The translations under genes were made by a program, and so were the position numbers. Shown in pieces: positions 11,996 to 43,285 of a stretch of DNA of 64,000 bases (the first letter of the stretch is position 1; every line of letters starts with the position of its first letter). The notes under the pieces are model-generated. The model was given only the letters and a program-made list of their open reading frames with translations. It searched no databases and was not told the DNA's origin. This stretch comes from Caulobacter sp. (GTDB lineage: Bacteria > Pseudomonadota > Alphaproteobacteria > Caulobacterales > Caulobacteraceae), in NCBI GenBank assembly GCA_031415995.1, contig JANOSS010000105.1, positions 14,089 to 78,088 of the forward strand, given 5' to 3'.

Positions 11996-12054
11996 GGGAT
12001 TTCTTTCCGGGGTCCACGGCGCCGCTTGGGCGTTTCGTGCGTTAGCGCCACAGC

Positions 12055-12072
12055 ACAACAGGAAGATGACGC
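12055..12072 (-). promoter_or_regulatory. Possible Pho box upstream of phoD
   Basis: Minus strand GCGTCAT-CTTC-CTGTTGT, 11-bp periodicity resembling CTGTCAT-N4-CTGTCAT; second half weak. Confidence 0.35.
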
Positions 12073-12381
12073 ATGTCGAGTGAAGGCCTTCACGTTCCCC
12101 GCGAAAAACTCAGCCGCAAGACCCTAAACCGCCACTACGCCATCACCTCGCTGATCGAGGAGTTCGAGGCGGTGGACTGGTATCGTCAGCGCGCAGATGA
12201 CTGCGACGACGTCGAGCTGAAGAAGATCCTGCTGCATAACGCCCGCGAGGAGCTGGAACACGCCGCCATGGTGCTGGAATGGCTGCGGCGAGACGATCCC
12301 GAGACCGACGAACAGCTGCGCAAGTACCTGTTCAAGGACGGCTCGATCGCCGGCCACGAGGAAGAGGCGGTCGGAAAATAG
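12073..12381 (+). CDS. Encapsulin-associated ferritin-like protein (EncFtn type)
   Basis: AITSLIEEFEAVDWYRQR and HNAREELEHAAMVLEWLRR match the EncFtn ferroxidase signature (EExEAVDWY, ExEH). Confidence 0.85.
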   Translation: MSSEGLHVPREKLSRKTLNRHYAITSLIEEFEAVDWYRQRADDCDDVELKKILLHNAREELEHAAMVLEWLRRDDPETDEQLRKYLFKDGSIAGHEEEAVGK

Positions 12382-12393
12382 GCGCCGAGACTT

Positions 12394-12425
12394 CTGCTCT
12401 GCCCGGCCAAGGCCGGGCAGAGCAG
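12394..12425. terminator. Strong hairpin between convergent genes
   Basis: ctgctctgcccggcc-aa-ggccgggcagagcag, 15-bp perfect inverted repeat. Confidence 0.7.
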
Positions 12426-12435
12426 TTATCATTGC

Positions 12436-14784
12436 CTAACGCTTGATCGACAGCGCCACGCCCACAAAGCGCGGCTCGCCGGCGATGAAGGTGGGGATGC
12501 CGAAGGCGTCGCCGGTGTTGCCGGCGTCCTTGATATAGTCCTGCTCGAGCAGGTTGGTCGCGAACGCCTCGATCTTGATGGCGCTGTCCTTGCTGGGCTG
12601 ATAGCCGATGCGCAGGTTCATCAGGCCATAGGCCTTCTGCTTCTCATCCTGGATCACGTCGCCCGTGGTCTGCAGCGCGGCCCGATCGTTGGCATTGTCG
12701 AAAAACACCTCCGACTGCCACGTATAGGTCGGGGTGATCGTGAAGCGGCCGATCGGCGCGTCGAAGGCCAGGTTGGCGCCCAGCGAGAAGCTGTCGTCCG
12801 GCGACAGACGGAAACGGTTATCCTTGAACAGACCGTTGCCGAAGCGGGCCTTGCTGTGCGCGTAGGTGCCGAACACGGTGGCATTGGCCGTGACCTGGAA
12901 GGTGGTCTGACCTTCAAAACCGGTGGCCGAGGCCTCGCCCGCATTGGTCGAAACGACCTGGCCGGACGGCAGACGGATCGAGGTCTGGAAGTTCTCGTAG
13001 TCATAGCGATAGACCGCGCCCTCCAGGGTCAGGCGACGATCCATGAGGGCGACCTTGGAGCCAATCTCGTAAGAGATGACTTCTTCGGCCGGGATCTCGG
13101 TGAACCGCGCCGCAGCGCCGGGAACGGTGTTGCCGCCCTGAACGACCTTGGGACGACGGCCGGTGGCCACCGAGGCGTAGAGGTTGGCGTCAGGCGTGAC
13201 GGCGTAGCGGCCGACGACGCGGTAGGTGATGCCGTTGTCGGTGAAGCTCTTGTATTGCGGCTGCCCGCCGGTGGTGGGCTGCACGAACAGGCCGCGTGGC
13301 GTGGTCGGCGTGCTGCCGCCCAGGACGGAGCCACCATTGCCCAGGACGACGCCGTAGCCGCTTTCCTTGTCGTCATAGGTGTAGCGCAGGCCGGCGGCCA
13401 GTTCGAGCTTGTCGGTCGCCTTCCAGGTCACATCGCCATAGGCGTCATACGACTTGGTCTTGCCGTAGTTGGTGAAGGTTTCCAGGTGCTGGCTCTTCAG
13501 CGGCCCGAAGGCCGGGATCGCGTTGATGAACGCCAGACCGGCGACATTGGGACGCACAAAGCCCGGGATCGCGCCGGCGCGGGCGGCGAACACCCGCTCG
13601 TTGAACAGCAGCGGCACGCGCTGGCTGCCGTCTTCCCAGAAATAGCTGAGCCCGCCAAAGGCCGTGATCGCGCCATCGGCGTCATAGTTCAGGCGCAGGT
13701 CCTGGCTGGCCGACTTGCCCTGGGCGTCTTCGGCGAAGGTGAACAGCGGCAGGGAGAAGCCGTCGGCGTCGAAAATCTCCTCGCCCGCAAAACGGCGGAA
13801 GGCGGTCGTCGAGGCCAACGAAAGGGCGTCATTGATCTTGTAGTTGGCCAGGCCGGTGACGCTGAACACGTCGCGCTCAAGACCCAGCTTCTGGTCGTTC
13901 TCGAAGCCGGCCACGGTGGCCAGGGCTGCGCCGGAATTGCGATCCAGATTACCCAGCACCGCGCCCGTGGTCGGGTCGGTCGGCAGATAGGTCAGCGACT
14001 TGAACGAGGTGCCCGACGGGCTGTCGGACTGATAGTTGACCAGCAGGTCGGCGTCGAAACGCTCGGTCGGGCGCCAGTTCAGCGCAACGCGCACCGCCGT
14101 GGTCTGGGTGGAGTTGAAGTCTTCGCCGACCAGCAGGTTCTTCACATAGCCGTCGCGGTGCTTGATGCGGCCGCCGACGCGGATCGACAGGGTGTCGGTA
14201 ATCGGAGCGTTGAACATGCCCTCGGCCATCATGTAGCCGAAGTTGCCGCCCTCGAAACGCGCCGAGGCGGCATAGCCCGGACGGGCCTTGGCCTGGATGA
14301 TGTTGACCGCGCCGATCAGCGCGCCGCGACCATAGAGGGTCGATTGCGGGCCCTTGGCCACTTCGACGCGCTCCAGGTCGAACAGCTCGACATAGGAGCC
14401 GCGCGACTTCGAGATCGAGACGCCGTCCTGATAGACCGAAACACGGGGTTCGTTGGTGGCTTCGCCGGAGTCGGAGGTGATGCCGCGCATCACGAAGCCC
14501 GGATTGTTCGGCGACTGGTTCTGGACCTCGAAGCCGGGAACGAACAGCGACAGCTCCTCGAACTCCTGAACGCCCAGCATCTCGAGCGTCGAGCCCGAAT
14601 AGGCGGTCAGCGAGACCGGCACATCCATGGCCTTCTGCTCGCGCTTCTGGGCGGTGACGACAACCTGCTCGACCTGAGCGGCGTCGGTCGGCGCATCGAC
14701 GTCGGCCGCAGCGGCCATGGAGGCGACGCTGAGCGCCAGAACACTGGCGGCAGACATCAGCAAGGTGGTGTGGATCGCGCGCAT
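12436..14784 (-). CDS. TonB-dependent receptor
   Basis: Signal peptide, TonB box EQVVVTAQKRE, plug ERVEVAKGPQSTLYGRGALIG, C-terminal beta strand. Confidence 0.95.
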   Translation of the reverse strand: MRAIHTTLLMSAASVLALSVASMAAAADVDAPTDAAQVEQVVVTAQKREQKAMDVPVSLTAYSGSTLEMLGVQEFEELSLFVPGFEVQNQSPNNPGFVMRGITSDSGEATNEPRVSVYQDGVSISKSRGSYVELFDLERVEVAKGPQSTLYGRGALIGAVNIIQAKARPGYAASARFEGGNFGYMMAEGMFNAPITDTLSIRVGGRIKHRDGYVKNLLVGEDFNSTQTTAVRVALNWRPTERFDADLLVNYQSDSPSGTSFKSLTYLPTDPTTGAVLGNLDRNSGAALATVAGFENDQKLGLERDVFSVTGLANYKINDALSLASTTAFRRFAGEEIFDADGFSLPLFTFAEDAQGKSASQDLRLNYDADGAITAFGGLSYFWEDGSQRVPLLFNERVFAARAGAIPGFVRPNVAGLAFINAIPAFGPLKSQHLETFTNYGKTKSYDAYGDVTWKATDKLELAAGLRYTYDDKESGYGVVLGNGGSVLGGSTPTTPRGLFVQPTTGGQPQYKSFTDNGITYRVVGRYAVTPDANLYASVATGRRPKVVQGGNTVPGAAARFTEIPAEEVISYEIGSKVALMDRRLTLEGAVYRYDYENFQTSIRLPSGQVVSTNAGEASATGFEGQTTFQVTANATVFGTYAHSKARFGNGLFKDNRFRLSPDDSFSLGANLAFDAPIGRFTITPTYTWQSEVFFDNANDRAALQTTGDVIQDEKQKAYGLMNLRIGYQPSKDSAIKIEAFATNLLEQDYIKDAGNTGDAFGIPTFIAGEPRFVGVALSIKR

Positions 14785-18264: not shown

Positions 18265-18354
<90 letters not shown>

Positions 18355-18580
18355 CTACCCTGTGAATTTCCGGAACTTTTCGCCACCGCCGCCCACCAAA
18401 ACACACTATCTCGATTGGCGATTGCGATTGCGTACGCAGGCTGTTGGCGGGCGCCTGGGGGCCCTGCGGGATTTCCTGGGCGCCATGCCGCGCGGTAGGG
18501 ATCCGGGCGTCAATGCTTGCGGATTGGTTGGTTCCAGCCCCCGTCGGGGACCGGAACCTTGGGAAGCCCCGCAACAGGGA

Positions 18581-18592
18581 TGGTCTATACCA
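18581..18592. promoter_or_regulatory. PhnR/PhnF-type operator, site 1
   Basis: TGGTCTATACCA, identical to site 4; lies downstream of the phnR stop. Confidence 0.7.
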
Positions 18593-18658
18593 AAATAGGG
18601 ACATTTCGACGCCTGCGCAGCGCGCTCAAGGAAAGCGCCCGTACGTGTCCGGCGAAGG

Positions 18659-19378
18659 TCAACGCACGCGGATATCGACGCTGATCTTGAGGGCGTCATG
18701 TCGCCAGTGCTCGCGGTCGAACTCGACCACGCGCCCCTGTGCATTGTAGCAGGTGCGCTCCACGCTGAGCCCAGGCAGGCCCGACTTGACCCGCAGGGCT
18801 TCGGCTTCACCCAGCGTCAGGGCGCAGGGCCGCATGTCGACCTTGTTGCGCGCGACGCCGATGCCGTAGACCGATTTCAGAACGCTGGTCAGCGAGCCGT
18901 CGAGATCGTGCTCCATAAGACCTGGCGCCAGGGAGGCGTCGACGACGATGCTCTCGATCAGCACGGCCCGGTCATCGATCGAGCGCCGGCGGCGGATCCA
19001 GTACATCGGCGCGCCAACGGGGCGTGAAAAGATCTGCGCCAGCATGCCGTCGCAGGCGATCTCGACCTTGCTGAGCGTCTCGGTCGCCGGCCGCCGCCCT
19101 TGCGCCTCGACATAGGACATGAAGCCCTCCCAGCGGGTCGGGTCATAGACCACCGGCGGCGGGGAAACGTACCAGCCGCTGCGGTCCTTTCGATAGATCA
19201 GCCCCTCGGCCTCAAGCTGAAACAGGGCCTCGCGAACGGTGCCCCGCGCCACGCCGCCGCCGACCTGCAACTGGCGCTCTGACGGCAGCCGTTCGCCAGC
19301 CTTCAGTTCGCCACTGACGATCCGCACGGCGATACCGTCGCGGACTCCAAGATAATGGAGAGTGTCGGACTGATGCAT
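18659..19378 (-). CDS. phnR: GntR/HutC family regulator with UTRA domain, PhnR-like
   Basis: LPSERQL, GLIYRKDRSGWYV, YDPT, DLDGSLT and WRHDALKISVD match Salmonella PhnR as recalled. Confidence 0.85.
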   Translation of the reverse strand: MHQSDTLHYLGVRDGIAVRIVSGELKAGERLPSERQLQVGGGVARGTVREALFQLEAEGLIYRKDRSGWYVSPPPVVYDPTRWEGFMSYVEAQGRRPATETLSKVEIACDGMLAQIFSRPVGAPMYWIRRRRSIDDRAVLIESIVVDASLAPGLMEHDLDGSLTSVLKSVYGIGVARNKVDMRPCALTLGEAEALRVKSGLPGLSVERTCYNAQGRVVEFDREHWRHDALKISVDIRVR

Positions 19379-19503: not shown

Positions 19504-19537
19504 TTGCCAAGCATAAGCCGATTTTGGTATATACCAA
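19504..19537 (+). promoter_or_regulatory. Sigma70-type promoter with operator site 2 over the -10
   Basis: TTGCCA (19504-19509), 16-bp spacer, GGTATATA inside the perfect palindrome TTGGTATATACCAA (19524-19537). Confidence 0.8.
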
Positions 19538-19560: not shown

Positions 19561-19716
19561 ATGACCACCCACCTTCGCACACGCGGCGACGACCACGGGC
19601 ACAATCCAACCCCGAGCTCAGCGGGCGGCCCGCTGCCGGCCCAGCGCCTGGTCGCCCCTCTGGAAACGGAGCGGAAAAGCCGCACCGACCCCAGCATCGG
19701 ACGGCGGCTGCTGTAA
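19561..19716 (+). CDS. 51-aa small ORF (leader peptide or scar of a deleted gene)
   Basis: AGGAGG RBS 7 nt before ATG, first ORF after the operator; MTTHLRTRGDDHGHNPTPSSAGGPLPAQRLVAPLETERKSRTDPSIGRRLL. Confidence 0.45.
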   Translation: MTTHLRTRGDDHGHNPTPSSAGGPLPAQRLVAPLETERKSRTDPSIGRRLL

Positions 19717-19757: not shown

Positions 19758-20342
19758 ATGATGACGACACGTCCTGCGGCCGATGCTTTCGTGGCCGAAC
19801 TCGCCGATCTCTTCGCCCGACTGGGCGGCCTGCGCTACGGGGAAGACGTCAGCCAGCTGGAGCACGCGCTGCAGACGGCGCATCATGCCAAGGTCGACAA
19901 CGCGCCGCCCGCCATGATCGTCGCCGCCCTGCTGCATGACGTAGGCCACCTGATGCAGAGGGCCGGCGAACACGCCGCCGACCTTGGCATCGATACGCGC
20001 CACGAGCACATCAGCGCCGGCTATCTGGCGCGGGCGTTCGGCCCGGCGGTGACAGAGCCGATCCGCCTTCACGTGGCGGCCAAGCGCTACAGGGTGGCCG
20101 TGGACCCCGCCTATTTCGCCCGCCTCAGCAAGGCGTCCCTGCAGAGTCTGGCTCTGCAGGGCGGCCCGATGCGTGAGGCCGAGATCGAGGCGTTCCTGGC
20201 CGAGCCGGCGGCGCAAGCCGCCCTGCGACTGCGCGGCTACGACGAAGCGGGCAAGGCCCAGGACGCCGAGGTGGCCGGTTTCGAGGCCTATCACGACCAT
20301 CTTCGAGATCAGATCGATCGCGCGGACGAAGTTTCAGTCTGA
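19758..20342 (+). CDS. phnZ: PhnZ/TmpB-like HD-domain diiron oxygenase (oxidative C-P cleavage)
   Basis: RYGE, QLEHALQ, ALLHDVGH, RHE, LHVAAKRY, SLALQGGPM and LRGYDEAGK; all PhnZ-type ligands present. Confidence 0.85.
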   Translation: MMTTRPAADAFVAELADLFARLGGLRYGEDVSQLEHALQTAHHAKVDNAPPAMIVAALLHDVGHLMQRAGEHAADLGIDTRHEHISAGYLARAFGPAVTEPIRLHVAAKRYRVAVDPAYFARLSKASLQSLALQGGPMREAEIEAFLAEPAAQAALRLRGYDEAGKAQDAEVAGFEAYHDHLRDQIDRADEVSV

Positions 20343-20412
20343 TCGCGAAGCCACGCCAGGGCCGCGACAAGCCGCTTCTCGTGCGCTGCGGGCTGTATCT
20401 GCGAGCGGCGGT

Positions 20413-20530
20413 CTTGAGCGTTTTCCGATAAGTGTGAAACGGTTATCGGTTCGAAAAACGCTCTAAACTTCTGATTTGGAGCCCTTTTCGCCCGGCCCTG
20501 ATGAAGCCATCAGGTCGGAAAGGGCTCTAG
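20413..20530 (+). repeat. CIR/Bru-RS-like intergenic repeat, copy 1
   Basis: Two tandem hairpins bounded by (T)AGAGC..GCTCTA; near-identical to 45550-45668 and, reversed, 49100-49217. Confidence 0.9.
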
Positions 20531-21471
20531 ACCTCGTCTGAGACCAGATGCTGCAAGACGCGTTTCTCGAGCACCAGCAGCGCGCTGGCGTTGTTGGTGC
20601 GCATGACCAGACCTGCGGCGAGCGGCCTGACGGCCTCGTGTACGGCGCGAGCCAGGCGCAGGAAGTCTGATCGCCCCCGTCCTGCGGCGCCATGCAAGGC
20701 GCAGAGCTGGCGCCAGTCGGATACAAAGTCCTCCAGCAGCATGCTGAACCGCGCAGCCCGGACCCTGGCTTCGGCGGTATCGGCAGCGAGCGCCAGTTCC
20801 GCGCGCAGATCGTCGACCAGCAGTTGCACTTCAGCGGCAGGCATCACCGGCGTGCGCTGGTCACCCTCGGTAAGCAAACTGGGACGCATCCCGGGATCCC
20901 AGGCCACCGTCCGCCATTGGGCGCGCGGCGGCGGCTGTCCACGGACGAATTGCCAGAAGGCCGCTGTGCCGCTGGTGTCCGCGACGAGATGGATGCGCTC
21001 GGCGCTGGCCCTGTTTTCCACATGGTGCGGGCGCCAGTTATCGAAGATCCAGGCTTCGCCAGCGGCCATGTGCACCGATTGCCCGTCGCAGTGAAAGGCG
21101 ACCTCCGGCCAGGTGAAGACCGGAATGTGCAGCCGCACCCGCGTATGCCAGTGGTAGTTGATATCGGCGTGCTCGGGCACGCTCGCGCCTGGGGCCAGGC
21201 GCATCAGCCGTGAGCGGCTCCAGACCACGCCAAAGGCCGCCAGGGCCTGGGTTGTATAGGGCATGGCCTCGAGCCAGCGCGTTGGCAGCATCTGCCCATG
21301 GACCGAGTCCGTCTCAGCCCCGCCCGCGCTGATCAACCGCGCCGCACTGTTGCCGGGCAAGCGGTCCGGGTGTGACGTCCAGGCTTCGTCTGGCAAGGCC
21401 GCGACCTCAGCCTGCAAACGCCCGACGTCGAAGAGCAGGGGGAGGTGGAAGAAGGGGCGTGAAAGCCGCAT
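20527..21471 (-). CDS. Aspartyl/asparaginyl beta-hydroxylase family Fe(II)/2OG oxygenase with C-terminal helical extension
   Basis: RSRLMRLAPG, PEHAD, RLHIPV, GEAWIFDNWRPHHVEN, RIHLVAD (HxD..H triad). Confidence 0.85.
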   Translation of the reverse strand: MRLSRPFFHLPLLFDVGRLQAEVAALPDEAWTSHPDRLPGNSAARLISAGGAETDSVHGQMLPTRWLEAMPYTTQALAAFGVVWSRSRLMRLAPGASVPEHADINYHWHTRVRLHIPVFTWPEVAFHCDGQSVHMAAGEAWIFDNWRPHHVENRASAERIHLVADTSGTAAFWQFVRGQPPPRAQWRTVAWDPGMRPSLLTEGDQRTPVMPAAEVQLLVDDLRAELALAADTAEARVRAARFSMLLEDFVSDWRQLCALHGAAGRGRSDFLRLARAVHEAVRPLAAGLVMRTNNASALLVLEKRVLQHLVSDEV

Positions 21472-21474
21472 GGG

Positions 21475-23406
21475 TCAGGCCTTGTAGCTGGCGAGCGCGT
21501 CACCCAGCCCGTCCCGCAGAGGCGCTAGCCATTGCTCGTAAGGCCGCCACTGCCCGAGGCCATCACGGCCGATGGGCTGGCGCACCTGCTCTGAACTGGG
21601 CGTGCGCACGCTGCGCTGGGTCTCGTGGAAAGCCAGGCAGGCCGGCTCAAAGGGCAGCCTGCAACCCTCCAGCATACGCTGTACGCTGTCTTCAAGGTCC
21701 TCGACCACATCCTCGTACGCCACCTTCAGCACCCGCCCCGGCAGCACCTCGCCCCAGTGCCTCATGAGGTCGAGATAGGAGCGATAGTGACGGGCGAGAT
21801 GATCCATGCCGTAGGTGAATTCCTGGTTGGTGGTCCCAAACAGCTGCTTGAGGTTGCTGAAGCAGCACGCCATGGGCTCGCGACGCACATCGATGATTGT
21901 CGACCGCGGCAGGATGAGATGGATCAGGCCGATGTGCCAGAAATTGTTGGGCATCTTGTCGATGAAGACGGCCTTCCCCAGCCTGCGATAGGTGCGGGTT
22001 TCGGCCAGAAAGCGCGCGCCGAGCGCCCGGGCGTCCTGCGCGGTAAGGCGCAGCAGGGCCTCGGGATCCAGCGGCAAGCCGCAATCAGGATCGCGGCCGC
22101 AGAGCTCGCCTGCATACCGGTCGATTTCTGTCAGCTCCTGCGTGCCTTCAACCTGGGAATGGGAGGCCAGGATCTGCTCGATCAAGGTTGACCCCGAACG
22201 CGGCAACCCCACGATAAAGATGGGTGCCGGATCGGCCAGACCCCAGTCAGCGCGCGCGGCAAAGACTTCGGCGGTGAAGACCTGTTTCAGTCGCAGGACG
22301 CAGGATTCCGCGACCTCGGGGCGATATCGGCTGGAGACAGCGCGGATCGCATTGCCGCGATCGTAATATTGCCAGGATGATGCGTAGTCTGCCCGGTCCT
22401 CCAGCGCCTTGCCCAACGCAAAACAGAGATAGACGCGGTCCATGTCCTGGACGGTCGGCTGGGCTTGCGCAGCGCGCAGGCGCGCGATGTCATCGTCGGT
22501 GAAGCGGTAGGTCTTGAGGTTGGCCAGGCTAAACCAGGCCACGCCGTAGTCTGGCCTCGCCGCCAGGGCGGCGCGATAGTCCGCAATGGCGTCCTGTTGC
22601 CGGCCCGTGACCTTCAGGGCGTTCGCCCGCCAAAGACGCAGGTCAGCGACTTCCGCCCCCAGGAGGGCTGGGCTGGCCAGCAGCCGTCCATAGAGATCAA
22701 TCAGCGGCTCATGGTCGCCCAGAGCGATGCAGGCCGCGCCGTACTGCTTGAGATACTGGCGATTGTCGGGGTCGTGTCCGAGCAAGTGCTCGGCCTCCTG
22801 CCGCGCCTGCAGGGGCTTTTGCTGCTGCAAGAGCACCATGGCGTAGTCGAGGCGCGCAGCGTGATAGTCCGGGGCGCGATCAAGCACAGACTTCAGCAAC
22901 GCCTCGGCCTCGCCAGGCGCCCCGCTCGCCATGCAGATACGCGCCAGCAGGCGAAGGGCGCCGACGTTTCCGCCATCCGTGTACAGATAATCACGGATGA
23001 CCTCCTCGGCCGAGGACAGATCGCCGTCGGCAAGCAGGCTGCTGGCCGCCACCACCGCCGGCGGGAGCTGCCTCAGCATCGCCAGATGCTGTTCGGCCGT
23101 GGCCGCCTGGGCCGTATCGCCGACCATGCGGTAGAGCTGTTCCAGCATGTCCCAGCTCGCCGGCAGGGTCGGGTTGAGGCGCACGGCCTCCCGCAGCGCC
23201 TCGATGGCGGCCGGCGCATCGCCAAGCACCACATGGCAGTGGCCGCGCTCCTGATACAGGCGGCTGAACCCGGGATCCAGTTCCTGGAGCCGCGCGAGGC
23301 TGGCCAGGGCTTCCGCGATGCGTTGGCCCGACCGCAGTTCCCTGGCTTCCTGCAACAGCGCGTCGCGATCGCGAGACGGGGGGCTGGAACTCTCGGAGGG
23401 CGTCAC
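21475..23406 (-). CDS. TPR-repeat sulfotransferase
   Basis: Several TPRs; PIFIVGLPRSGSTLIEQIL PAPS-binding loop; IDKMPNNF; VRTPSSEQVRQPI. Confidence 0.9.
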   Translation of the reverse strand: MTPSESSSPPSRDRDALLQEARELRSGQRIAEALASLARLQELDPGFSRLYQERGHCHVVLGDAPAAIEALREAVRLNPTLPASWDMLEQLYRMVGDTAQAATAEQHLAMLRQLPPAVVAASSLLADGDLSSAEEVIRDYLYTDGGNVGALRLLARICMASGAPGEAEALLKSVLDRAPDYHAARLDYAMVLLQQQKPLQARQEAEHLLGHDPDNRQYLKQYGAACIALGDHEPLIDLYGRLLASPALLGAEVADLRLWRANALKVTGRQQDAIADYRAALAARPDYGVAWFSLANLKTYRFTDDDIARLRAAQAQPTVQDMDRVYLCFALGKALEDRADYASSWQYYDRGNAIRAVSSRYRPEVAESCVLRLKQVFTAEVFAARADWGLADPAPIFIVGLPRSGSTLIEQILASHSQVEGTQELTEIDRYAGELCGRDPDCGLPLDPEALLRLTAQDARALGARFLAETRTYRRLGKAVFIDKMPNNFWHIGLIHLILPRSTIIDVRREPMACCFSNLKQLFGTTNQEFTYGMDHLARHYRSYLDLMRHWGEVLPGRVLKVAYEDVVEDLEDSVQRMLEGCRLPFEPACLAFHETQRSVRTPSSEQVRQPIGRDGLGQWRPYEQWLAPLRDGLGDALASYKA

Positions 23407-24032
23407 CGCGCGGCGCCGGCCAGCAGAAACGGCTCCAGCCAGCTGGGTTCCGGCTGGTCGGCGTCATAGTACTCGAAGATCAGATGGACGCGGTCGGTAT
23501 CACCGTCGTTGCGCACCCAGTGTGGACCCAGGTTGTTGACCTCCACCGCCTCGCCCGGTGGGAAATGGTGTTCACCGCCGCCGAAGAAGGACACCACCTG
23601 GGGATTGGTCGACAACGGCACATGGATCTTGTGCGGCCATTTCGCGGCGGGGTTGGCGTCGATATGAGGGTGGATCACCCCGCCCGGCGGCATCCTTGCC
23701 AACATCACTCGAGGAAACACTCCGCGCGCATAGCCATAGTCGCGGACGGCCTGAGCCAGCACCGGCTCCAGCAATCCGCGCCAGTCGGGCCAGGCCGCGC
23801 GATCGTGCGAACTGCGCCAGTCGCGAGGACCGTCGATAAACCGGAAAACGATGTGGCGGGTCGCGTCCAGCACCTCAAACCTGTTGGGCTTGCCCGCGTT
23901 TTCCGCAGCCCAGACGTCCGCGGCAATCTCCAGAACGGCCGCCTGCAGCGCGGCGATGTCGACCGGCCCGAGCTTGCGGACGCCGGTGGTCTTGCGCGGG
24001 TTGGCGGCAGGCGCAAAAGGGGTAGCGTTCAT
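23403..24032 (-). CDS. Aspartyl/asparaginyl beta-hydroxylase family Fe(II)/2OG oxygenase
   Basis: RVMLARMPPGG, HPHID, KIHVPL, NNLGPHWVRN, DRVHLIFE. Confidence 0.85.
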   Translation of the reverse strand: MNATPFAPAANPRKTTGVRKLGPVDIAALQAAVLEIAADVWAAENAGKPNRFEVLDATRHIVFRFIDGPRDWRSSHDRAAWPDWRGLLEPVLAQAVRDYGYARGVFPRVMLARMPPGGVIHPHIDANPAAKWPHKIHVPLSTNPQVVSFFGGGEHHFPPGEAVEVNNLGPHWVRNDGDTDRVHLIFEYYDADQPEPSWLEPFLLAGAAR

Positions 24033-24667
24033 CGCATATCTTCGAAGCTGTAGCCGAACTGTTCCAGATCCTGGGCGTAGCGGGCGGCGACGCCGTCGAT
24101 CAGGTCCTGGTCGTAATAGTGACGATAGTCACCGTGATGGCTGCCGTTGACGCGGTCCAGAGGGCGGGAGGGAATGCCGATGCGCGCGCAGATCGCATCA
24201 TACGACCCCTGCATATCCTCGACGTGGCCGATGTGGTCGGCCATCAGGGTCTTGCCGTCCTCGCCCACCAGAAGCGAGGCTTGTGGCTGGAACAGGATGT
24301 GGTGTTCCGGCGGCTTCTCGAAAAGAAAGTGCCGCATGACCGCCTGCGGTTGCTGCTCAAAGACGTCACCGCCCCGCAGCATGAAGGCGCAGTACGAGAC
24401 GAAGCGATCGAACGGATTGCGCACGAAGGCGAACTTGAAATAACCGCTGAAGGCCGCCTCGCCGAGATAGGGGCGCACCTGCTGCAGAGACAGGTGGCCA
24501 TGCCGGATCGCCGCCAGATCCTCCCAAGGGAAGCGCTTGTCGACGAACAGCCCGACCTGCTCGAGGTCGCCGTCGCTCAGGTGTTCGCGCAGGGCCTGTC
24601 GCACGGCATGGGTCCCGGTCTTGGGCACGGCGGCGAAGATGAAGCGATGGCTGTGGGAAACAATCAT
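24029..24667 (-). CDS. Sulfotransferase family 2 protein
   Basis: FIFAAVPKTGT 5'-PSB loop and FAFVRNPFDRFVSY 3'-PB motif. Confidence 0.85.
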   Translation of the reverse strand: MIVSHSHRFIFAAVPKTGTHAVRQALREHLSDGDLEQVGLFVDKRFPWEDLAAIRHGHLSLQQVRPYLGEAAFSGYFKFAFVRNPFDRFVSYCAFMLRGGDVFEQQPQAVMRHFLFEKPPEHHILFQPQASLLVGEDGKTLMADHIGHVEDMQGSYDAICARIGIPSRPLDRVNGSHHGDYRHYYDQDLIDGVAARYAQDLEQFGYSFEDMR

Positions 24668-24684
24668 GTTTCAGGGACACCCAG

Positions 24685-24718
24685 AAAAAGCGCCCCACCT
24701 CTCAGGAAGGCGGGGCGC
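24685..24718 (-). terminator. Intrinsic terminator between the TBDR and the sulfotransferase
   Basis: Minus strand GCGCCCCGCC-N9-GGTGGGGCGC-TTTTT. Confidence 0.75.
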
Positions 24719-24741
24719 AAAGTCTACATTAAGCGGTGGCC

Positions 24742-27528
24742 TTAGAACTTGTAGCTAAGCCCAACCATATAGGTCGAGCCGCTCTGGTTCTGGTTGTAGA
24801 GGTACTGGTTCTGGCCCCAGAACTGCGTGTCCTCCTGGTTCGTCAGATTGATACCGTTCAGCGTGAGCTGCAGTTGATCGGTGACGTTCAGGAAGGCCGA
24901 GGCGTCCACATAGGTCGACCCCTCGAAGCCGCGCGTGCTGGCGCTCATGACAGTGGCGCTGTTCCCGGAGAACCAGCGATTGCGGTGGCTCATGGAACCA
25001 CGGACACCCCAGCGCGCGGTCTCGTAGTAGAGCGTGGCGTTGTAGCTGGTGTTCGAGATGCCGGTGAGCGCCTCGTCAGCGTCCACATAGGTGTAGTTGG
25101 CCACCGCACCCAGCTTGTCGAACGGCGCCGGCAGGAACGAGAATTGGCCCTGTGCGGCCAGTTCCACACCGGTCAGCTTCTTGGTGCCGGCGATATTGAC
25201 CGGCATCGAGAACTCTTTGACGATCGTATTGGCCGTGGCGCCCGGGATCGTGGTGAACGGGACGCCCGTCTGGCTGAAGGGGATGTTCTCGAGGGTCTGT
25301 GAGCCGATAAAGTTCTTGATGCTCTTCTGGAACACGCTGGCCGAGAGCAGGCCGTCCACGCCGAAATAGTACTCCGCCGCGAAGTCCAGCGTGTTGTCCT
25401 TGTAGGGCTCAAGGTTTGGATTGCCGCGCGACGCCGAGATGTCGCCGCTATCCGAATTCTGGAACGCACTGCCCTTGGCCGCCATCGAACCCAGGCCCGG
25501 ACGGTTGAGGTTCTGCGTGGCGGAGAAGCGCACCAGCACGTCCGGAGCCACCTCCAGCACCGAGTTCATGGCCGGCAGCACGCCTGAGTAGCTGCCTTCG
25601 ACGTCCGTCGTGCCCAGATAGGCGTAGCTGTCGCCCTGGATCCAGCCGGTGCTGTGGGTGTCAGTCTGATAGCCCCGCAGGCCGATGTTACCGCGGAAGC
25701 GCTTGCCGAAGAGGTCGGTGTCCCAGTCCGCCTGCACATACTCGGAGAAGGTCTTTTCCGAGGTCTCGTAGACGTTCTCGATGTCCTGCAGCGCGCCGCC
25801 CGTACCGTCCTTGTTGGGACCGAAGCGGTGGTACTCGTTGTACTTCGCAAAGGCCTTGGCGTAGTCGCCGACCAGCCACGACCCGAAGCTGTTGGTGAAC
25901 ACCGAGGTGACGTCGGCAACGGCCGTCCCGCGCATCTTGGTCCGGGTTCCATTGACGTTGTCGTCATAGAACAGGTCGATGCCGCCTTGCGTGAACTTGT
26001 GATAGGCCACGCCGGCCCGCAGGGTCCAAACCTCGTTCAGCACGTATTGGGCGTCCAGCACGCCTTCCTGCAGTTCCGACTGATTGTTGAAGCCGCGATA
26101 GTAGAACGAGTCCATCGCGTAGTTGGCGGGGTTGGTTCTATCCCAGCCCGGATACTGGAACGTCGCCGACCGGCCATCGCTGCCATAGTTGGCGATCAGA
26201 TTGCCCTTGGCGCGCATATAGAGCTTGTCGTCATAGGGCGTCTCGTAGGTCGACTTCTCGTAGCCGACATGTCCGTCGATCGTGAGGCGATCCGAGAGGT
26301 CCCACTTGCCGGTCAGCGCCACCTGGTCGAAGTTGTTTTCGTTCAGCGAGCGGCGGTGCTCGCTGCCGAAGGTGGTGCCCGTGACATCGGTCATGGTCAC
26401 GTAGTTGCTGTTGTCCCAGGCCAGGTTGTTGATGACGGACGCCTTCTGGAAGGCGATAGGCCAGACCGTGCTGGCCGCAGTATCGAACGCAACCGAGCCC
26501 TTGGACGCGAGCGGCCGCGTGGCGAGATGCAGTTCGTCGCGATGCGTGGTGTACTCGCCGTGCAGCACATCAAGCGTCAGCAGCAGGTTGTCCACCGGAC
26601 GCCACTGCACAGCTCCCGTCAGACCGAGGCGCTCCTGCTGCGAGTTCCAGGATGAGATGCGGTTGCCATCCGCAAAGTACAGGTCGCCGGACTGGAACTT
26701 GGTCTGCTGCGCAGCGCTTAGCTTGGAGATGTCCAGACCCTTGGCGACCAGGCCCTTCATGGCCGCCGCATCCGGTTTCGTGTAGTTATAGGTATTGTGG
26801 CCCTGTTCCGTGGTCTCACGCTTTGAATAGGCGACCGAGAACGCCACGCCAAACTTGTTGTCCCAGTTCTGGCTGAACAAGGCCGCGATGCGCGGCTGCG
26901 CGTCCTCGGTGTATTCGTTGGTTCCGAGCTTAAACGACACCGCACCCTTGGAGCCCGACGCGTAGTCAAACGGCTTGCCGGTGAACAGGCCGACCGTGCC
27001 GGCCATGCCGCCCTCGTTTTGGGCCGCCTGGAAGGTCTTTTCGACCTCCACGCGGGAGAACAGTTCCGAGGCGAAAATGTTGAAGTCGAAAGCGCGATCG
27101 CGTGAACGCTGGCCGCGGCTGTCCTGGGCGGAATCGACGTTGCCCAGCACCTCCATGCCATTGAGCTGCACACGGGCGAAATCTGGACCCAGGCCCCGCA
27201 GCGAGATCCGCCGGCCTTCGCCCGCTTCCCGGGTGATCTGCACGCCCGGCAGGCGTTGCAGCGATTCAGCCAGGTTGAGTTCCGGGAACTTCGCCATGTC
27301 CTCGGCGACGATCACGTCCTTCTGGATGACCGAATCTCTCTTGATGGCGCGCGCATCGCTGAGCGACTTCCGGTAGCCGGTGACGACAACTTCGTCGACC
27401 AGATCGCCAGAAGCCTGCTGCGCGAGCGCGGCCGATGAATGCGCGCCAGCGACCAGCACCGCTACGGTAGCTAGCAAAAAGCTCTTGAGATGCGGGCGGG
27501 TAGCCCGAACAGGATATCGCTTAAACAT
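24742..27528 (-). CDS. TonB-dependent receptor of the island
   Basis: Signal peptide, DEVVVTG TonB box, NLAESLQRLPGV plug, C-terminal YKF; AAGGA RBS before ATG 27528. Confidence 0.95.
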   Translation of the reverse strand: MFKRYPVRATRPHLKSFLLATVAVLVAGAHSSAALAQQASGDLVDEVVVTGYRKSLSDARAIKRDSVIQKDVIVAEDMAKFPELNLAESLQRLPGVQITREAGEGRRISLRGLGPDFARVQLNGMEVLGNVDSAQDSRGQRSRDRAFDFNIFASELFSRVEVEKTFQAAQNEGGMAGTVGLFTGKPFDYASGSKGAVSFKLGTNEYTEDAQPRIAALFSQNWDNKFGVAFSVAYSKRETTEQGHNTYNYTKPDAAAMKGLVAKGLDISKLSAAQQTKFQSGDLYFADGNRISSWNSQQERLGLTGAVQWRPVDNLLLTLDVLHGEYTTHRDELHLATRPLASKGSVAFDTAASTVWPIAFQKASVINNLAWDNSNYVTMTDVTGTTFGSEHRRSLNENNFDQVALTGKWDLSDRLTIDGHVGYEKSTYETPYDDKLYMRAKGNLIANYGSDGRSATFQYPGWDRTNPANYAMDSFYYRGFNNQSELQEGVLDAQYVLNEVWTLRAGVAYHKFTQGGIDLFYDDNVNGTRTKMRGTAVADVTSVFTNSFGSWLVGDYAKAFAKYNEYHRFGPNKDGTGGALQDIENVYETSEKTFSEYVQADWDTDLFGKRFRGNIGLRGYQTDTHSTGWIQGDSYAYLGTTDVEGSYSGVLPAMNSVLEVAPDVLVRFSATQNLNRPGLGSMAAKGSAFQNSDSGDISASRGNPNLEPYKDNTLDFAAEYYFGVDGLLSASVFQKSIKNFIGSQTLENIPFSQTGVPFTTIPGATANTIVKEFSMPVNIAGTKKLTGVELAAQGQFSFLPAPFDKLGAVANYTYVDADEALTGISNTSYNATLYYETARWGVRGSMSHRNRWFSGNSATVMSASTRGFEGSTYVDASAFLNVTDQLQLTLNGINLTNQEDTQFWGQNQYLYNQNQSGSTYMVGLSYKF

Positions 27529-27547
27529 GAGTGTCCTTCGCCCCAAC

Positions 27548-27559
27548 TGGTATGAACCA
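27548..27559. promoter_or_regulatory. PhnR-type operator, site 3 (variant)
   Basis: ACTGGT-ATGA-ACCAGT about 20 bp upstream of the TBDR start; same TGGT-N4-ACCA spacing. Confidence 0.55.
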
Positions 27560-27775
27560 GTCAGACTAAAGCAGCCAGCGACGACACCCGCGTGACAGCG
27601 CCGTCCCGCACGACGCAATTTGTCCGCTCCGCGCCGCACGTCAGGTCGATTGTGGCCCTGCGGGGGTGACTTTAGGGAATATTGGGCGCTCTATCGGCCC
27701 TGTCGCCCGGCGCATTGACGCTCCTCAACACCCTGACGTCGCGGCTCATTTGGCCAACGGGTCACAGTCGCAAAA

Positions 27776-27809
27776 CTGCCAACTTCTCGTGATATTTGGT
27801 CTATACCAA
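27776..27809 (+). promoter_or_regulatory. Promoter with operator site 4 over the -10
   Basis: CTGCCA, 16-bp spacer, GGTCTATA inside TTGGTCTATACCAA (27796-27809); same geometry as 19504-19537. Confidence 0.8.
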
Positions 27810-27834: not shown

Positions 27835-28014
27835 ATGAGTCCAGCGGACAAGCCGGCCCTGAAGGCCTTGCCTCAGACGCGCGGACCATCTCGGCCGCCG
27901 GCGGCGACGCGCAGCAGCGCCGCCGCCGGCGCGGTGATCGACGCCGCCGCCAGACATCCCTTCGCGCTGGCTGCACTTCCCATTCACAGCCCTGATTCAT
28001 GGAGTACGTTATGA
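27835..28014 (+). CDS. 59-aa upstream ORF overlapping the phosphatase start
   Basis: ATG 25 nt after the operator; TGA overlaps ATG 28011; no clear RBS. Confidence 0.25.
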   Translation: MSPADKPALKALPQTRGPSRPPAATRSSAAAGAVIDAAARHPFALAALPIHSPDSWSTL

Positions 28015-29675
28015 AGAATCCGATCCGGGTGATCCCGCTTCTCCTTGCGCTCCTCGCCGGCATGGCAGGCGCGGCCGGCGCCTATGCCGGCGAGGCCCGG
28101 AAGGCAGGCCATGTGATCATCATCGGCGTGGACGCCCTGAGCCCCGACGGCGTGATGAAGGCCGATACCCCCACCCTGCACGACATGATGAAGCGCGGCA
28201 GCTGGAGCATGCATGCCCGCGGCGTGCTGCCCACCACGAGCGGCGCCAACTGGGCGTCCATCATCGGTGGCGCAGGACCAGAGCAGCACGGCGTGACGAG
28301 CAACGACTGGCAGGTGGGCGAGTTCAATTTCCCCGCTTCGGTGACCGGCTCCGGGGGCTTCTTCCCATCCATCTTCCAGGTGCTCACAGATCAGAAGCCG
28401 GAATGGGAACTAGGCTCGATCTATAACTGGGACGGCTTCGGCAATCTCTACGACCACCGGTTCGTGGACTATGACGTCCACGGCAAGGATGAGGACGAAA
28501 CCACCGCGCTGGCGGTCAATTACATCAAGACCAAGCGGCCTGAGTTCCTGTTTGTGCATTTGGATCATGTCGATCACGCCGGACATGCCCATGGCCACGG
28601 CACGCCGCTGTTTTACGAGGCCGTGGCCAAGGCCGACAAGCTGATCGACAAGATCCGCCAGGCCACGGTGGAGGCCGGCATCGCGGACGAGACGGTGATC
28701 CTGGTCACCTCCGACCATGGCGGCGTGGGCAAGGGGCACGGCGGAGAAAGCCTGGCTGAACTTGAAATTCCCTGGATTGCCTATGGCAAGGACATCAAGC
28801 CGGGCCAGCTTGATCTGCCCATCAACACGTTCGACACCCCCGCCACCGCCGCCTGGCTGCTGGGCGCCAAGATCCCCTACGCCTGGCTAGGGCGCGCCGT
28901 GACGCCAATCCTGAAGGGCGAAAAGGCGCCAGAACAAGCCTATCGCTCCAGCAGCTTTTACGCCTCTCCGGTGATCGAACCGGCAAGCGACGGGAATGCG
29001 CCTGCAGGCGGGCTGTTCATCAACCGGACGGCGAAGATGACCATCCGCAACCCCAACGCCGCCGGACAGGTCCGCTACACGCTGGACAGTTCAATCCCCA
29101 CGGTCGGATCCCCGCTTTACACCGGCCCTGTCGAGATCGCTCGCAACACGATCGTGCGGGCCACGCTGTTCGTTTCCGGCCAAGCCGCCAGCGTTCCCGC
29201 CACGGCCTACTTCCGCATCCTCGACCTGAAAGGTCCCGAGGCGCGCGGGGTGAACTACAAGGTGTATCTGCTGCCGGAGACGCCGGTGCGGCTGCCCGAT
29301 TTCTCCCGGCTCGAGCCCGCAACCGCCGGCACATCCCATGAACTGACCATCGACGGGATGACGCTCCCGCGAGGCGACAGCGTGGCGGTGGTCTTCGAAG
29401 GGTATCTCCACATCGCGGCGGCAGGCGCCTACAGTTTCGCGCTCGCCTCCGACGACGGCAGCAAGCTCTATATCGACGGCAAACAGATAGTCGACAACGA
29501 TGGCGACCACGGCGTGGTTACGGCGAACGGCAACATCGACCTGCAGCCCGGCAAGCATGCGATCAGGGTTGAGTGGTTCAATGGCGGCGGCGGTGCCTGG
29601 TTGGGCGCATACTTCGAAGGCCCAGGCATTCCTCGCCAGTTCATCGATCCAAACCTGCTGACGCCGCAGGAGTGA
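28011..29675 (+). CDS. Secreted alkaline-phosphatase superfamily (NPP/phosphodiesterase-like) enzyme with chitobiase-C/Fn3-like and PA14 domains
   Basis: Sec signal; IIGVDAL, PTTSGANW (Ser nucleophile), HLDHVDHAGH, VTSDHG; QVRYTLDSSIP; FALASDDGSKLYIDG and HAIRVEWFNGGGG. Confidence 0.85.
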   Translation: MKNPIRVIPLLLALLAGMAGAAGAYAGEARKAGHVIIIGVDALSPDGVMKADTPTLHDMMKRGSWSMHARGVLPTTSGANWASIIGGAGPEQHGVTSNDWQVGEFNFPASVTGSGGFFPSIFQVLTDQKPEWELGSIYNWDGFGNLYDHRFVDYDVHGKDEDETTALAVNYIKTKRPEFLFVHLDHVDHAGHAHGHGTPLFYEAVAKADKLIDKIRQATVEAGIADETVILVTSDHGGVGKGHGGESLAELEIPWIAYGKDIKPGQLDLPINTFDTPATAAWLLGAKIPYAWLGRAVTPILKGEKAPEQAYRSSSFYASPVIEPASDGNAPAGGLFINRTAKMTIRNPNAAGQVRYTLDSSIPTVGSPLYTGPVEIARNTIVRATLFVSGQAASVPATAYFRILDLKGPEARGVNYKVYLLPETPVRLPDFSRLEPATAGTSHELTIDGMTLPRGDSVAVVFEGYLHIAAAGAYSFALASDDGSKLYIDGKQIVDNDGDHGVVTANGNIDLQPGKHAIRVEWFNGGGGAWLGAYFEGPGIPRQFIDPNLLTPQE

Positions 29676-31061: not shown

Positions 31062-31066
31062 CCCTT

Positions 31067-34528: not shown

Positions 34529-34531
34529 CGC

Positions 34532-37063: not shown

Positions 37064-37083
37064 GGGGTTACTCTCTGGAAAAA

Positions 37084-39590: not shown

Positions 39591-39596
39591 CGCGCC

Positions 39597-43272: not shown

Positions 43273-43285
43273 AGGAAGACCCATC

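Follow-up and report, generated by a model that had tools for sequence, protein, structure and literature searches.

[quoted passage not shown] The window, that is, the whole 64-kb stretch of DNA that was analysed, comes from a freshwater Caulobacter; a search for RNA runs with this sequence found none, and the runs that hold it are DNA metagenomes only, a freshwater sediment sample foremost. The features of the locus, in order of position, are these:

18580..18593, no strand: operator-like site ATGGTCTATACCAA, two mismatches, just 3' of phnR, where relatives have DUF5690
18659..19378, minus strand: phnR, PhnR-like GntR/HutC regulator with a GntR HTH and a UTRA domain, divergent from phnZ
19524..19537, no strand: presumed PhnR operator TTGGTATATACCAA, a perfect palindrome in the divergent phnR/phnZ promoter region
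19561..19716, plus strand: mini-ORF of 51 codons with an AGGAGG Shine-Dalgarno sequence, what remains of a phosphocholine-type phospholipase C (PLC) gene after an in-frame deletion
19758-20342, plus strand: phnZ, the PhnZ/TmpB-family oxygenase, of a clade specific to the island
20343..20526, no strand: convergent intergenic region of 184 bp with two long hairpins
20527..21471, minus strand: AspH314, AspH-like Fe/2OG oxygenase whose C-terminal domain is helical, at the end of its operon and convergent on phnZ
21475..23406, minus strand: TPR (OGT-like) and Sulfotransfer_3 protein, its catalytic domain tyrosylprotein sulfotransferase-like
23403..24032, minus strand: AspH209, second AspH-like Fe/2OG oxygenase
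24029..24667, minus strand: small Sulfotransfer_2 protein without a signal peptide; its PAPS-binding motifs are PKTGT and RNPFDR
24742..27639, minus strand: TonB-dependent receptor (TBDR) of the Xanth-Caul subfamily, first of the five operon genes; its true start is probably an internal Met at about 27528
27796..27809, no strand: operator TTGGTCTATACCAA, one mismatch, in the gap that separates the TBDR operon from the NPP-PA14 operon
27999..29675, plus strand: phosphodiesterase of the NPP type, secreted, carrying CHB_HEX_C and PA14 domains; putative (phosphono)ester hydrolase
29760-31061: TPR-methyltransferase, after the NPP gene
31067-32779: TPR-sulfotransferase, after the TPR-methyltransferase

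Family and active site of the phnZ product

The protein matches the NCBIfam family TIGR03276, "phosphonate degradation HD-domain oxygenase", at E 3.8e-60 and 202.5 bits, a near miss of the curated cut-off of 214.6; it scores 165 bits against the TmpB equivalog NF049941 and 149 bits against the PhnZ1 hydroxymethylphosphonate dioxygenase equivalog NF052439, both under a cut-off of 300. The NCBIfam match is Phn-HD, while Pfam returns a weak MIOX match only. Among solved structures, TmpB (6NPA, E 1e-31) aligns best and PhnZ (4MLM) aligns at E 3e-26. All six iron ligands of the H...HD...H...H...D pattern are kept (H36, H60, D61, H82, H105 and D162, aligning with H34, H58, D59, H80, H104 and D161 of PhnZ), and so are the phosphonate-binding residues K108, S126, S/T129, Q133 and R158 together with H62 (PhnZ numbering), which are conserved in more than 90% of 131 aligned PhnZ-family members. 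With this family match, the full ligand set and the phosphonate pocket, the PhnZ/TmpB assignment made in the initial annotation stands: judged by its sequence, 19758-20342 is an intact and genuine PhnZ-type gene for a C-P-cleaving oxygenase, predicted to act on 1-hydroxyphosphonates.

The gating loop retains its Tyr and Glu with the spacing Y-G-E, one residue shorter than Y-x-G-E (YxxE); this short form (30 sequences) outnumbers every other loop type in the alignment of 131 members. Loop length was considered as a marker of partner type and rejected, as it showed no correlation with TauD, PhyH or HAD fusions. The gating-loop Glu touches the substrate amino group in both PhnZ and TmpB.

In a neighbour-joining (NJ) tree the protein falls into a separate clade of 22 of the 139 sequences, which holds every island copy, and its eight nearest neighbours exclude the PhnZ of the marine fosmid HF130_AEPn_1. 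The PhnY*/PhnZ system of that fosmid (4MLM/4MLN) shares with the window protein the HD fold, the diiron site, the phosphonate-binding residues and the gating Tyr and Glu, but differs from it in tree position, in its longer loop, in having a PhyH-type PhnY* and in genomic company, which for the island clade consists of PLC, PhnR, DUF5690, PbfD and PhnX. Likewise, the TmpA/TmpB pathway for trimethyl-AEP (Leisingera caerulea; 6NPA) offers the best solved match and agrees in all its ligands and in the gating Tyr and Glu, whereas the window protein lies far below the TmpB cut-off, in a separate clade, and the window has no GBBH/TauD-type TmpA gene.

An Asp-hydroxylase-like Fe/2OG enzyme and an HD-domain oxygenase are also paired, on paper, in the SmaO/SmaX system (Kim et al. 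2025, PMC12186529), a published pair that converts Asp through beta-hydroxy-Asp to aminomalonate; a peptide cascade of this type would suit the peptide-directed look of the operon's TPR-sulfotransferase. SmaX, however, is a mono-iron DUF6817/HD_4 protein with Asn in place of the HD aspartate and a peptide substrate, whereas the window protein is a canonical diiron PhnZ member with six ligands, a Lys/Ser/Ser/Gln/Arg pocket and a TIGR03276 match at E 4e-60, and its neighbours across dozens of genomes are PhnR, PLC, PbfD, PhnX and DUF5690. The SmaO/SmaX-type reading was rejected on the active-site inventory, above all the full diiron set, and has a negligible probability.

Control and reduction of the phnR-phnZ locus

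The phnR product scores 236 bits against TIGR03337 (cut-off 296.75), the next best family reaching only 80 bits, and phnR is 99.6% identical in ErkDOM-C and ErkDOM-E, with dN/dS of 0.014-0.084. Sites of the PhnR-type operator motif TTGGTMTAKACCAA number three in the window against 0.14 expected; a scan of 1.46 Mb gave 105 sites, 101 of them next to island genes, with about 0 expected by chance. The palindrome at 19524..19537, conserved in four genomes, is presumed to be the PhnR operator. The operator sites of relatives fall in the gap between phnR and DUF5690, and the site at 18580..18593 is probably an orphaned operator. A candidate regulon is thereby defined, with one operator and three promoter regions. 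A scan for Pho boxes (CTGTCAT-N4-CTGTCAT) found 2 matches against 3.3 expected, no excess. The PhnR regulon of Salmonella (phnR, phnSTUV, phnWX) is similarly governed by a GntR/UTRA regulator that is nearest TIGR03337 and whose divergent promoter contains a palindromic operator. In comparison, the window PhnR stays below the family cut-off, and its putative regulon comprises the TonB receptor operon, PLC/phnZ, DUF5690 and NPP, where Salmonella has an ABC importer and PhnWX.

The mini-ORF between operator and phnZ joins the region of the PLC start codon to the last ~44 PLC codons. An intact PLC (TIGR03396, 753 bits) occupies its position in three related loci (L005, L010 and L013); the gene is missing at this position in the window, in ErkDOM-C, in ErkDOM-E and in Caulobacter 32-67-35, while Caulobacter RL271 (L007) and Brevundimonas albigilva (L041) carry disrupted copies. 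These losses, together with the orphaned operator at 18580 and the faster evolution of phnZ relative to phnR at the same locus, would fit phnZ as a functionless leftover of a decaying island that has lost PLC, DUF5690, PbfD and PhnX around it. Against such decay, the phnZ ORF is intact with every catalytic residue kept, the geometry of operator, Shine-Dalgarno sequence and mini-ORF upstream of it is preserved, phnR is highly conserved, and phnZ has a dN/dS of 0.18-0.27 (with dS reaching 0.48), a level close to that of AspH314. The gene is still under purifying selection, and its being a relic is improbable.

On its other side, phnZ is bounded by the two hairpins of the convergent intergenic region (MFE -85 kcal/mol, z -4.6), which probably form a bidirectional terminator parting phnZ from the AspH operon.

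Hydroxylase partners and the phosphonate module

PhnZ-type enzymes represent one of the few routes that break the C-P bond, and PhnZ thus opens a large and poorly mapped phosphorus pool. The initial annotation was right that no PhnY, PhnY* or TmpA is encoded next to phnZ: Pfam scans of ~45 of the ~50 called ORFs of the window found no PhyH or TauD domain, and six-frame tblastn of the window, queried with eight PhyH/TauD domains that belong to PhnZ fusion proteins, gave no match (best E 0.04). It was right, too, that the two AspH-like proteins are the sole 2OG oxygenases in the island, and this holds for the whole window. Its premise that the absence of PhnY is an anomaly proved mistaken, as there are published precedents and 32 of 70 diverse PhnZ-family loci, among matches listed in a scan that samples the family and is not a census, have no PhyH or TauD neighbour, against 38 with an adjacent one.

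Zangelmi et al. (2021, PMC8154272) found PhnZ in 15 phnWX and 24 phnWAY clusters but in only 7 phnY*Z clusters, and read PhnZ without PhnY* in hydrolytic AEP clusters as the use of natural R-HAEP, a compound that PhnW/PhnX do not process; HAEP has been reported from Acanthamoeba and Bdellovibrio lipids (PMC8154272; PMC12366243). The phnWX/phnWAY clusters with PhnZ and the accessory lyase PbfA (PMC8154272) are the closest functional analogue of the locus, a PhnZ without PhnY* beside a phosphonoacetaldehyde-based pathway. The island differs from them in that relatives use a PbfD-PhnX arm rather than PhnW-PhnX, in the co-transcription of phnZ with PLC, in its GntR-type PhnR and, in the window itself, in the complete absence of the hydrolytic arm.

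In C. segnis and other Caulobacter, phnZ lies ~18-48 bp behind the phosphocholine-type PLC gene and divergent from phnR-DUF5690(-PbfD-PhnX), without a 2OG hydroxylase. The PbfD-PhnX pair of relatives matches TIGR03364 (405 bits) followed by the phosphonatase family TIGR01422 (333 bits); PbfD converts AEP and N-methyl-AEP to phosphonoacetaldehyde, the substrate of PhnX (Zangelmi et al. 2023, PMC10590968). A panel of 68 loci, each spanning +-6 kb around PhnX, contained PbfD in 68, DUF5690 in 56, PhnZ in 40, PLC in 34, TauD in 1 and PhyH in 0. A scan for PhnX gave at least 600 rows, and known PhnX-bearing Caulobacter loci such as L015, L083 and L087 lie outside the matches listed; that ErkDOM-C and ErkDOM-E, the closest complete genomes, are not among these matches either therefore carries no information on whether they have PhnX elsewhere. 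DUF5690, PbfD and PhnX are all absent from the 64-kb window. The published PbfD-PhnX clusters are not described with a PLC, a TonB receptor or an AspH/sulfotransferase operon, and the words "phospholipase" and "DUF5690" do not occur in that text (PMC10590968).

A conventional PhnY*- or TmpA-type partner might instead be encoded elsewhere in the chromosome, beyond the window. Such partnerships are common in the 70-locus panel, TmpB is the best solved match of the phnZ product, and the island of Asticcacaulis solisilvae plasmid pAS1 carries a TauD-HD fusion (L048 1102-2724). Canonical partners, however, almost always lie immediately upstream of phnZ in that panel, none was found within 20 kb around phnZ at 13 Caulobacter-type loci, and TauD and PhyH are nearly absent from the PhnX-centred panel. 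A word-indexed search with the TmpA-like domain of Asticcacaulis, a weak argument, returned 150 proteins, none labelled Caulobacter, among them one from a Caulobacteraceae MAG at 45% identity. An unlinked partner has a slim chance of being the answer.

The initial annotation had offered two ways out, a new class of phosphonate hydroxylase or the direct consumption of natural (R)-1-hydroxy-2-AEP. The second is the better supported, by the make-up of the PhnX-centred module, by the published clusters (PMC8154272) and by fusions: twenty PhnZ fusion proteins join the enzyme to HAD/PhnX-like domains (5), TauD (5), PhyH (3) or DUF5690 (2), and none to AspH, while NPP-HD-TauD triple fusions are found elsewhere. 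The best explanation, held with about even confidence, is a stand-alone PhnZ-type oxygenase using an aminophosphonate that is already C1-hydroxylated, without a dedicated Fe/2OG partner. Its substrate would most likely be (R)-1-hydroxy-2-aminoethylphosphonate or a close N-methylated relative, cleaved to glycine (or a derivative) and phosphate, within a phosphorus-scavenging island presumably under PhnR control. In relatives, a Tat-exported phosphocholine-type PLC and/or a secreted NPP would free phosphonate head groups from glycans or, as we infer, lipids; import would proceed through the TonB-dependent receptor and the DUF5690 permease; PbfD and PhnX would break down plain and N-methyl AEP; and PhnZ would handle the hydroxylated species beyond the reach of this hydrolytic route. 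In the present lineage, the in-frame deletion of PLC and the disappearance of DUF5690, PbfD and PhnX from the locus would have left a reduced module of phnR, operator and phnZ, under selection.

Several observations run counter to the stand-alone reading: the sub-cut-off scores in TIGR03276, TmpB and PhnZ1 and the shortened gating loop; the loss from the window of both the releasing PLC and the inner-membrane permease DUF5690; and the operator that the adjoining AspH operon has in common with phnZ, in keeping with a tighter functional link than this reading requires.

This PhnZ clade, widespread among Caulobacterales and Sphingomonadales of fresh water and soil, would work with no hydroxylase, and its co-transcription with a secreted PLC in relatives suggests that hydroxylated head groups of phosphonolipids serve as a genuine nutrient. 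Phosphonate use would then also be underestimated by gene surveys restricted to phnY*-phnZ pairs.

The AspH/sulfotransferase operon

Both AspH-like proteins match Pfam PF05118 above its cut-off of 22.6 bits (AspH314 at 56 bits, AspH209 at 39 bits) and carry the complete HxD...H...R motif, as H101/D103/H149/R159 in AspH314 and H123/D125/H171/R181 in AspH209. They belong to the PF05118/cupin family, with no PhyH or TauD match, and on sequence grounds could only be functional analogues of PhnY*/TmpA, not members of their families. The AF2 model of AspH314 (pLDDT 79) matches proline hydroxylases and AspH, in line with a DSBH fold; the solved structures closest to AspH314 belong to 4- and 3-hydroxylases of free L-proline rather than to peptide AspH. 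Sequence searches against solved structures gave nothing usable for AspH209 and the Sulfotransfer_2 protein.

One or both of these oxygenases might hydroxylate C1 of an imported aminophosphonate, replacing PhnY*/TmpA as the supplier of PhnZ, with AEP, N-methyl-AEP, trimethyl-AEP or the aspartate isostere phosphonoalanine as substrate; taken together, enzyme role and substrates make an unlikely proposition. In its favour, phnZ and the TBDR-ST-AspH-ST-AspH operon of the window both have the same operator in front of them, and 23 of 67 loci have it ahead of their TBDR orthologues. Synteny between the operon and the phosphonate module extends over two orders, Caulobacterales and Sphingomonadales, with 31 of 53 species-level loci lying within 10 kb of PhnZ or PhnX; in 13 species PbfD-PhnX directly follows AspH314 in the same orientation, 3-52 bp behind it, and in L013 the stop and start codons overlap. 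The AspH314 family is small (833 proteins) and sits within the five-gene operon in the 80 loci examined, the best 80 of 261, at 72-97% identity. The complete HxD...H...R motif of both proteins and the free-amino-acid hydroxylases nearest to AspH314 also count in its favour.

Against it, PhnZ is missing from the 10 kb around 25 of the 53 AspH loci, all with full flanks, and at 22 of the 53 PhnX is missing as well. Of the 40 PhnX loci that contain PhnZ, 28 lack AspH314 within 6 kb; the two modules occupy separate contigs in Asticcacaulis AC466 and in one MAG. AspH fusions are absent from the twenty PhnZ fusion proteins, and AspH stands beside PhnZ at only 2 of the 70 PhnZ-family loci among the matches listed, both from the island. 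In relatives phnZ is co-transcribed with PLC and not with the AspH genes, and the hairpins lie between them. Two PAPS sulfotransferase genes invariably alternate with the AspH genes, an arrangement that a PhnY-like role leaves unexplained, and one of them, with its OGT-like TPR and tyrosylprotein-sulfotransferase-like domain, suggests that the substrate is a peptide or protein, or else that the chemistry is different. Conservation between the two orders, at 64-87% for the operon versus 47-53% for PhnZ, suggests separate modules. Separate recruitment of PhnZ beside the operon in each order was rejected; the island PhnZ copies form one clade, and the adjacency of AspH and phnZ is thus largely inherited. 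Despite the common operator, the AspH-like oxygenases are probably not the partners of phnZ.

The two AspH-like oxygenases and two PAPS sulfotransferases, a cytoplasmic set of high conservation behind a TBDR and a PhnR-type operator, could constitute a new aminophosphonate-processing pathway, for instance a third, AspH-fold class of C1-hydroxylase feeding PhnZ, or a hydroxylate-then-sulfate route from AEP-type compounds to phosphonoacetaldehyde for PhnX, an unlikely prospect. This five-gene operon, which is strongly conserved, is the best next target in phosphonate catabolism.

Identity and setting of phnZ

The initial annotation had pointed to a PhnZ encoded without a PhnY-type hydroxylase, and had proposed that two AspH-like Fe/2OG oxygenases substitute for this partner or that PhnZ uses (R)-1-hydroxy-2-AEP (R-HAEP) directly. 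The observation holds within the 64-kb window, because neither Pfam scans of about 45 of its roughly 50 called ORFs nor a six-frame search using eight PhyH/TauD domains as queries gave any PhyH or TauD match. The features concerned are:

18265-18354, tRNA-Ser(CGA)
18580-18593, degenerate operator-like site
18659-19378, minus strand, GntR/UTRA regulator gene (phnR)
19561-19716, mini-ORF of 51 codons
19758-20342, plus strand, phnZ (194 aa)
20527-27639, five-gene operon with overlapping stop and start codons: TonB-dependent receptor, Sulfotransfer_2, AspH209 (AspH-like, 209 aa; 23403-24032, minus strand), TPR-Sulfotransfer_3, AspH314 (AspH-like, 314 aa; 20527-21471, minus strand)
27796, operator shared by the five-gene operon and a second unit
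27999-32779, the second unit, divergent from the operon: secreted NPP-PA14 phosphodiesterase, TPR-methyltransferase, TPR-sulfotransferase

The window is high-GC Caulobacter DNA, near-complete in a freshwater sediment metagenome run; its PhnZ-like protein shares 95% identity with the Caulobacter sp. ErkDOM-C protein, and the GC3 of the ORF (0.81) is on par with its neighbours. The protein matches NCBIfam TIGR03276 (“phosphonate degradation HD-domain oxygenase”, E 3.8e-60) at 202.5 bits, slightly under the curated cut-off of 214.6, and falls well short of the TmpB (165 vs 300) and PhnZ1 (149 vs 300) equivalog cut-offs; it aligns end to end with the solved structures of TmpB (6NPA, E 1e-31) and PhnZ (4MLM, E 3e-26). 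In an alignment with 128 family representatives, it keeps all six iron ligands and H62, as well as the phosphonate-binding K108, S126, S129, Q133, and R158 (PhnZ numbering). Of the substrate-gating loop of PhnZ/TmpB enzymes (PMC8177086), Tyr and Glu are kept too, with a spacing one residue shorter; this is the most frequent loop type in the family alignment, in which loop length and partner type showed no correspondence. Since iron ligands and phosphonate-binding residues are all there, the protein is, on sequence grounds, a genuine diiron oxygenase of the PhnZ/TmpB family. The full six-ligand site led to the rejection of a mono-iron enzyme of SmaX type (PMC12186529), and a SmaO/SmaX-like peptide cascade is highly improbable. 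In some Sphingomonas island PhnZ proteins (loci L025, L057, L091), Gln replaces the second His of the HDxGH motif (PhnZ H62).

Upstream and divergent from phnZ lies the regulator gene, whose product is nearest to PhnR (236 bits; next family 80 bits). The 380-bp gap between them holds a perfect palindrome, TTGGTATATACCAA, and the mini-ORF with its strong Shine-Dalgarno; two long hairpins (z -4.6) separate phnZ from the convergent downstream operon.

Probable remnants of a larger phosphonate module

In C. segnis, Caulobacter RL271, and several metagenomic Caulobacter, the phnR-phnZ space is filled by an intact phosphocholine-type phospholipase C (PLC; TIGR03396, 753 bits) with a twin-arginine signal, and phnZ starts ~18-48 bp after it. 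DUF5690, a polytopic membrane protein and presumably a permease, comes after phnR in those relatives, many of which then add a PbfD-family FAD oxidase (TIGR03364, 405 bits) and PhnX, a phosphonoacetaldehyde hydrolase (TIGR01422, 333 bits); by oxidizing AEP and N-methyl-AEP, PbfD enzymes supply PhnX with phosphonoacetaldehyde (PMC10590968). The window holds no DUF5690, PbfD, or PhnX homologue. Its mini-ORF, preceded by AGGAGG, fuses the region around the PLC start codon to the final 44 codons of the gene (50% identical, E 7e-6) and is an in-frame deletion scar of PLC, common to the window and ErkDOM-E; in ErkDOM-C and Caulobacter 32-67-35 it has become shorter still. Because it ends 41 nt before phnZ, near the PLC-phnZ spacing of intact loci, it may still deliver ribosomes to phnZ. 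Loss of the PLC gene is recurrent; it is frameshifted in Caulobacter sp. RL271 (L007 7850-9966) and split in Brevundimonas albigilva (L041 760-2852).

The motif TGGT[AC]TA[GT][AT]CCA occurs 105 times in 1.46 Mb of AspH loci (~0 expected); 101 of these sites either lie beside phnR, phnZ, PLC, DUF5690, NPP, or PhnX or precede the TonB receptor gene, a position occupied in 23 of 67 loci. This putative PhnR operator, assigned solely from its position, has three sites in the window against 0.14 expected, with one mismatch in the receptor/NPP divergent promoter region. The degenerate copy at 18580-18593, downstream of phnR and exactly at the expected DUF5690 promoter region, appears to be an orphaned operator-like site. 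The tRNA gene lies just beyond it, and the left flank is a rearrangement boundary, since ErkDOM-C is syntenic there with the window and ErkDOM-E is not.

That phnZ is itself a functionless relic of this erosion is improbable: despite the loss of PLC, DUF5690, PbfD, and PhnX around it, its dN/dS is 0.18-0.27 at dS up to 0.48, similar to AspH314. On the leading account given below, it would be what survives of a PhnR-controlled module scavenging phosphonolipids and phosphonate esters. Its substrate may be of lipid head-group origin, which fits the fact that in relatives phnZ is co-transcribed with the gene of a secreted phospholipase C.

PhnZ without PhnY in other genomes

PhnZ lacking PhnY is not unusual. 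The genome scans for the PhnZ family and PhnX are samples, not censuses; among the matches listed, 70 PhnZ-family loci spanning many phyla divide into 38 with a TauD (35) or PhyH (3) gene, in almost every case immediately upstream, and 32 with neither, and AspH occurs in only two, both of this island. Loci centred on island-type PhnX (68 among the matches listed) contain PbfD (68), DUF5690 (56), PhnZ (40), PLC (34), TauD (1), and PhyH (0). A conventional hydroxylase partner encoded elsewhere in the Caulobacter genome is improbable. On the 736-kb plasmid pAS1 of Asticcacaulis solisilvae, the same island has a TauD-HD fusion (L048 1102-2724; TmpA-TmpB-like) beside DUF5690, besides an island-type PhnZ.

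The 20 multidomain PhnZ proteins carry TauD (5, two also with an NPP phosphodiesterase), PhyH (3), HAD/PhnX-like (5), or DUF5690 (2) partners, and none is fused to AspH. The NPP-HD-TauD triple, five HAD(PhnX-like)-HD, and two DUF5690-HD fusions (P0252, P0265, P0130, P0143, P0153, P0176, P0219, P0191, P0202) are Rosetta-stone links of PhnZ with ester hydrolysis, phosphonatase, and the DUF5690 membrane protein. PhnZ genes have been counted in 15 phnWX and 24 phnWAY clusters and only 7 phnY*Z clusters; R-HAEP is not processed by PhnW/PhnX, and the PhnZ genes in phnWX/phnWAY clusters were read as R-HAEP degraders (Zangelmi et al., PMC8154272). HAEP has been reported in Acanthamoeba and in the membrane lipids of Bdellovibrio (PMC8154272; PMC12366243). 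The leading account, to which we give an even chance, is that the window PhnZ acts alone on an already hydroxylated aminophosphonate.

The AspH operon

The AspH operon and the phosphonate module are genuinely linked, and this link is not specific to PhnZ. The AspH314 family is small (~833 members among 5.8 billion proteins); an exhaustive pattern scan of species-representative genomes found 261 relatives, and the best 80 of these, 72-97% identical, come from Caulobacter, Phenylobacterium, Brevundimonas, Asticcacaulis, Sphingomonas, Novosphingobium, Sphingobium, and relatives. Where full 10-kb flanks were available (53 loci), the operon is intact in 51; nearby, the 53 loci contain PLC (39), PhnR-like (37), PhnZ (28), or PhnX (20) genes, and only two contain none of these. 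In 13 species, AspH314 leads straight into PbfD-PhnX on the same strand. The TPR-methyltransferase and TPR-sulfotransferase of the second unit are lineage-specific, with few matches across 80 loci.

That the AspH proteins are replacement hydroxylases for PhnZ is a live but minority hypothesis, and an unlikely one. Their operon lies within the same operator set as phnR and phnZ, both AspH proteins retain an intact HxD...H...R motif, and among solved structures AspH314 is closest (sequence profile; Foldseek with a pLDDT-79 model) to free L-proline hydroxylases and to a nucleoside-antibiotic hydroxylase, with human AspH ranking behind them. Against this, PhnZ is absent within 10 kb in 25 of the 53 AspH loci (both C-P enzymes in 22), AspH314 is absent within 6 kb in 28 of 40 PhnZ-containing PhnX loci among the matches listed, and some genomes carry the two modules on separate contigs. 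Two bona fide PAPS sulfotransferase genes (motifs PKTGT/RNPFDR and PRSGST) invariably alternate with the AspH genes, and a PhnY-like role leaves them unexplained; one product combines an OGT-like TPR array with a tyrosylprotein-sulfotransferase-like catalytic domain. Between Caulobacterales and Sphingomonadales, the operon is also far better conserved (64-87% identity) than PhnZ (47-53%), PhnR (~60%), or PhnX (~65%), and the AspH-PhnZ adjacency is mostly inherited rather than repeatedly selected, since island PhnZ copies form one clade. Within the inferred PhnR regulon, the operon of receptor, sulfotransferase, and AspH genes is the genuinely new lead.

A simple scan gave no conspicuous Pho box. 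Genes for a PhoD phosphatase and another TonB-dependent receptor are located 4-9 kb upstream (10289-14784), which makes this part of the chromosome rich in phosphorus-acquisition genes overall. Two further clusters are ordinary and unrelated to phnZ: one for N-acetylglucosamine utilisation at 32747-48787 (PTS EIICB, EI-HPr-EIIA, GH20 hexosaminidase, two TonB receptors, GntR, SIS, NagA) and one for chemotaxis at 51342-61460 (CheB, CheR, CheA, and two MCPs, of which one has a protoglobin domain).
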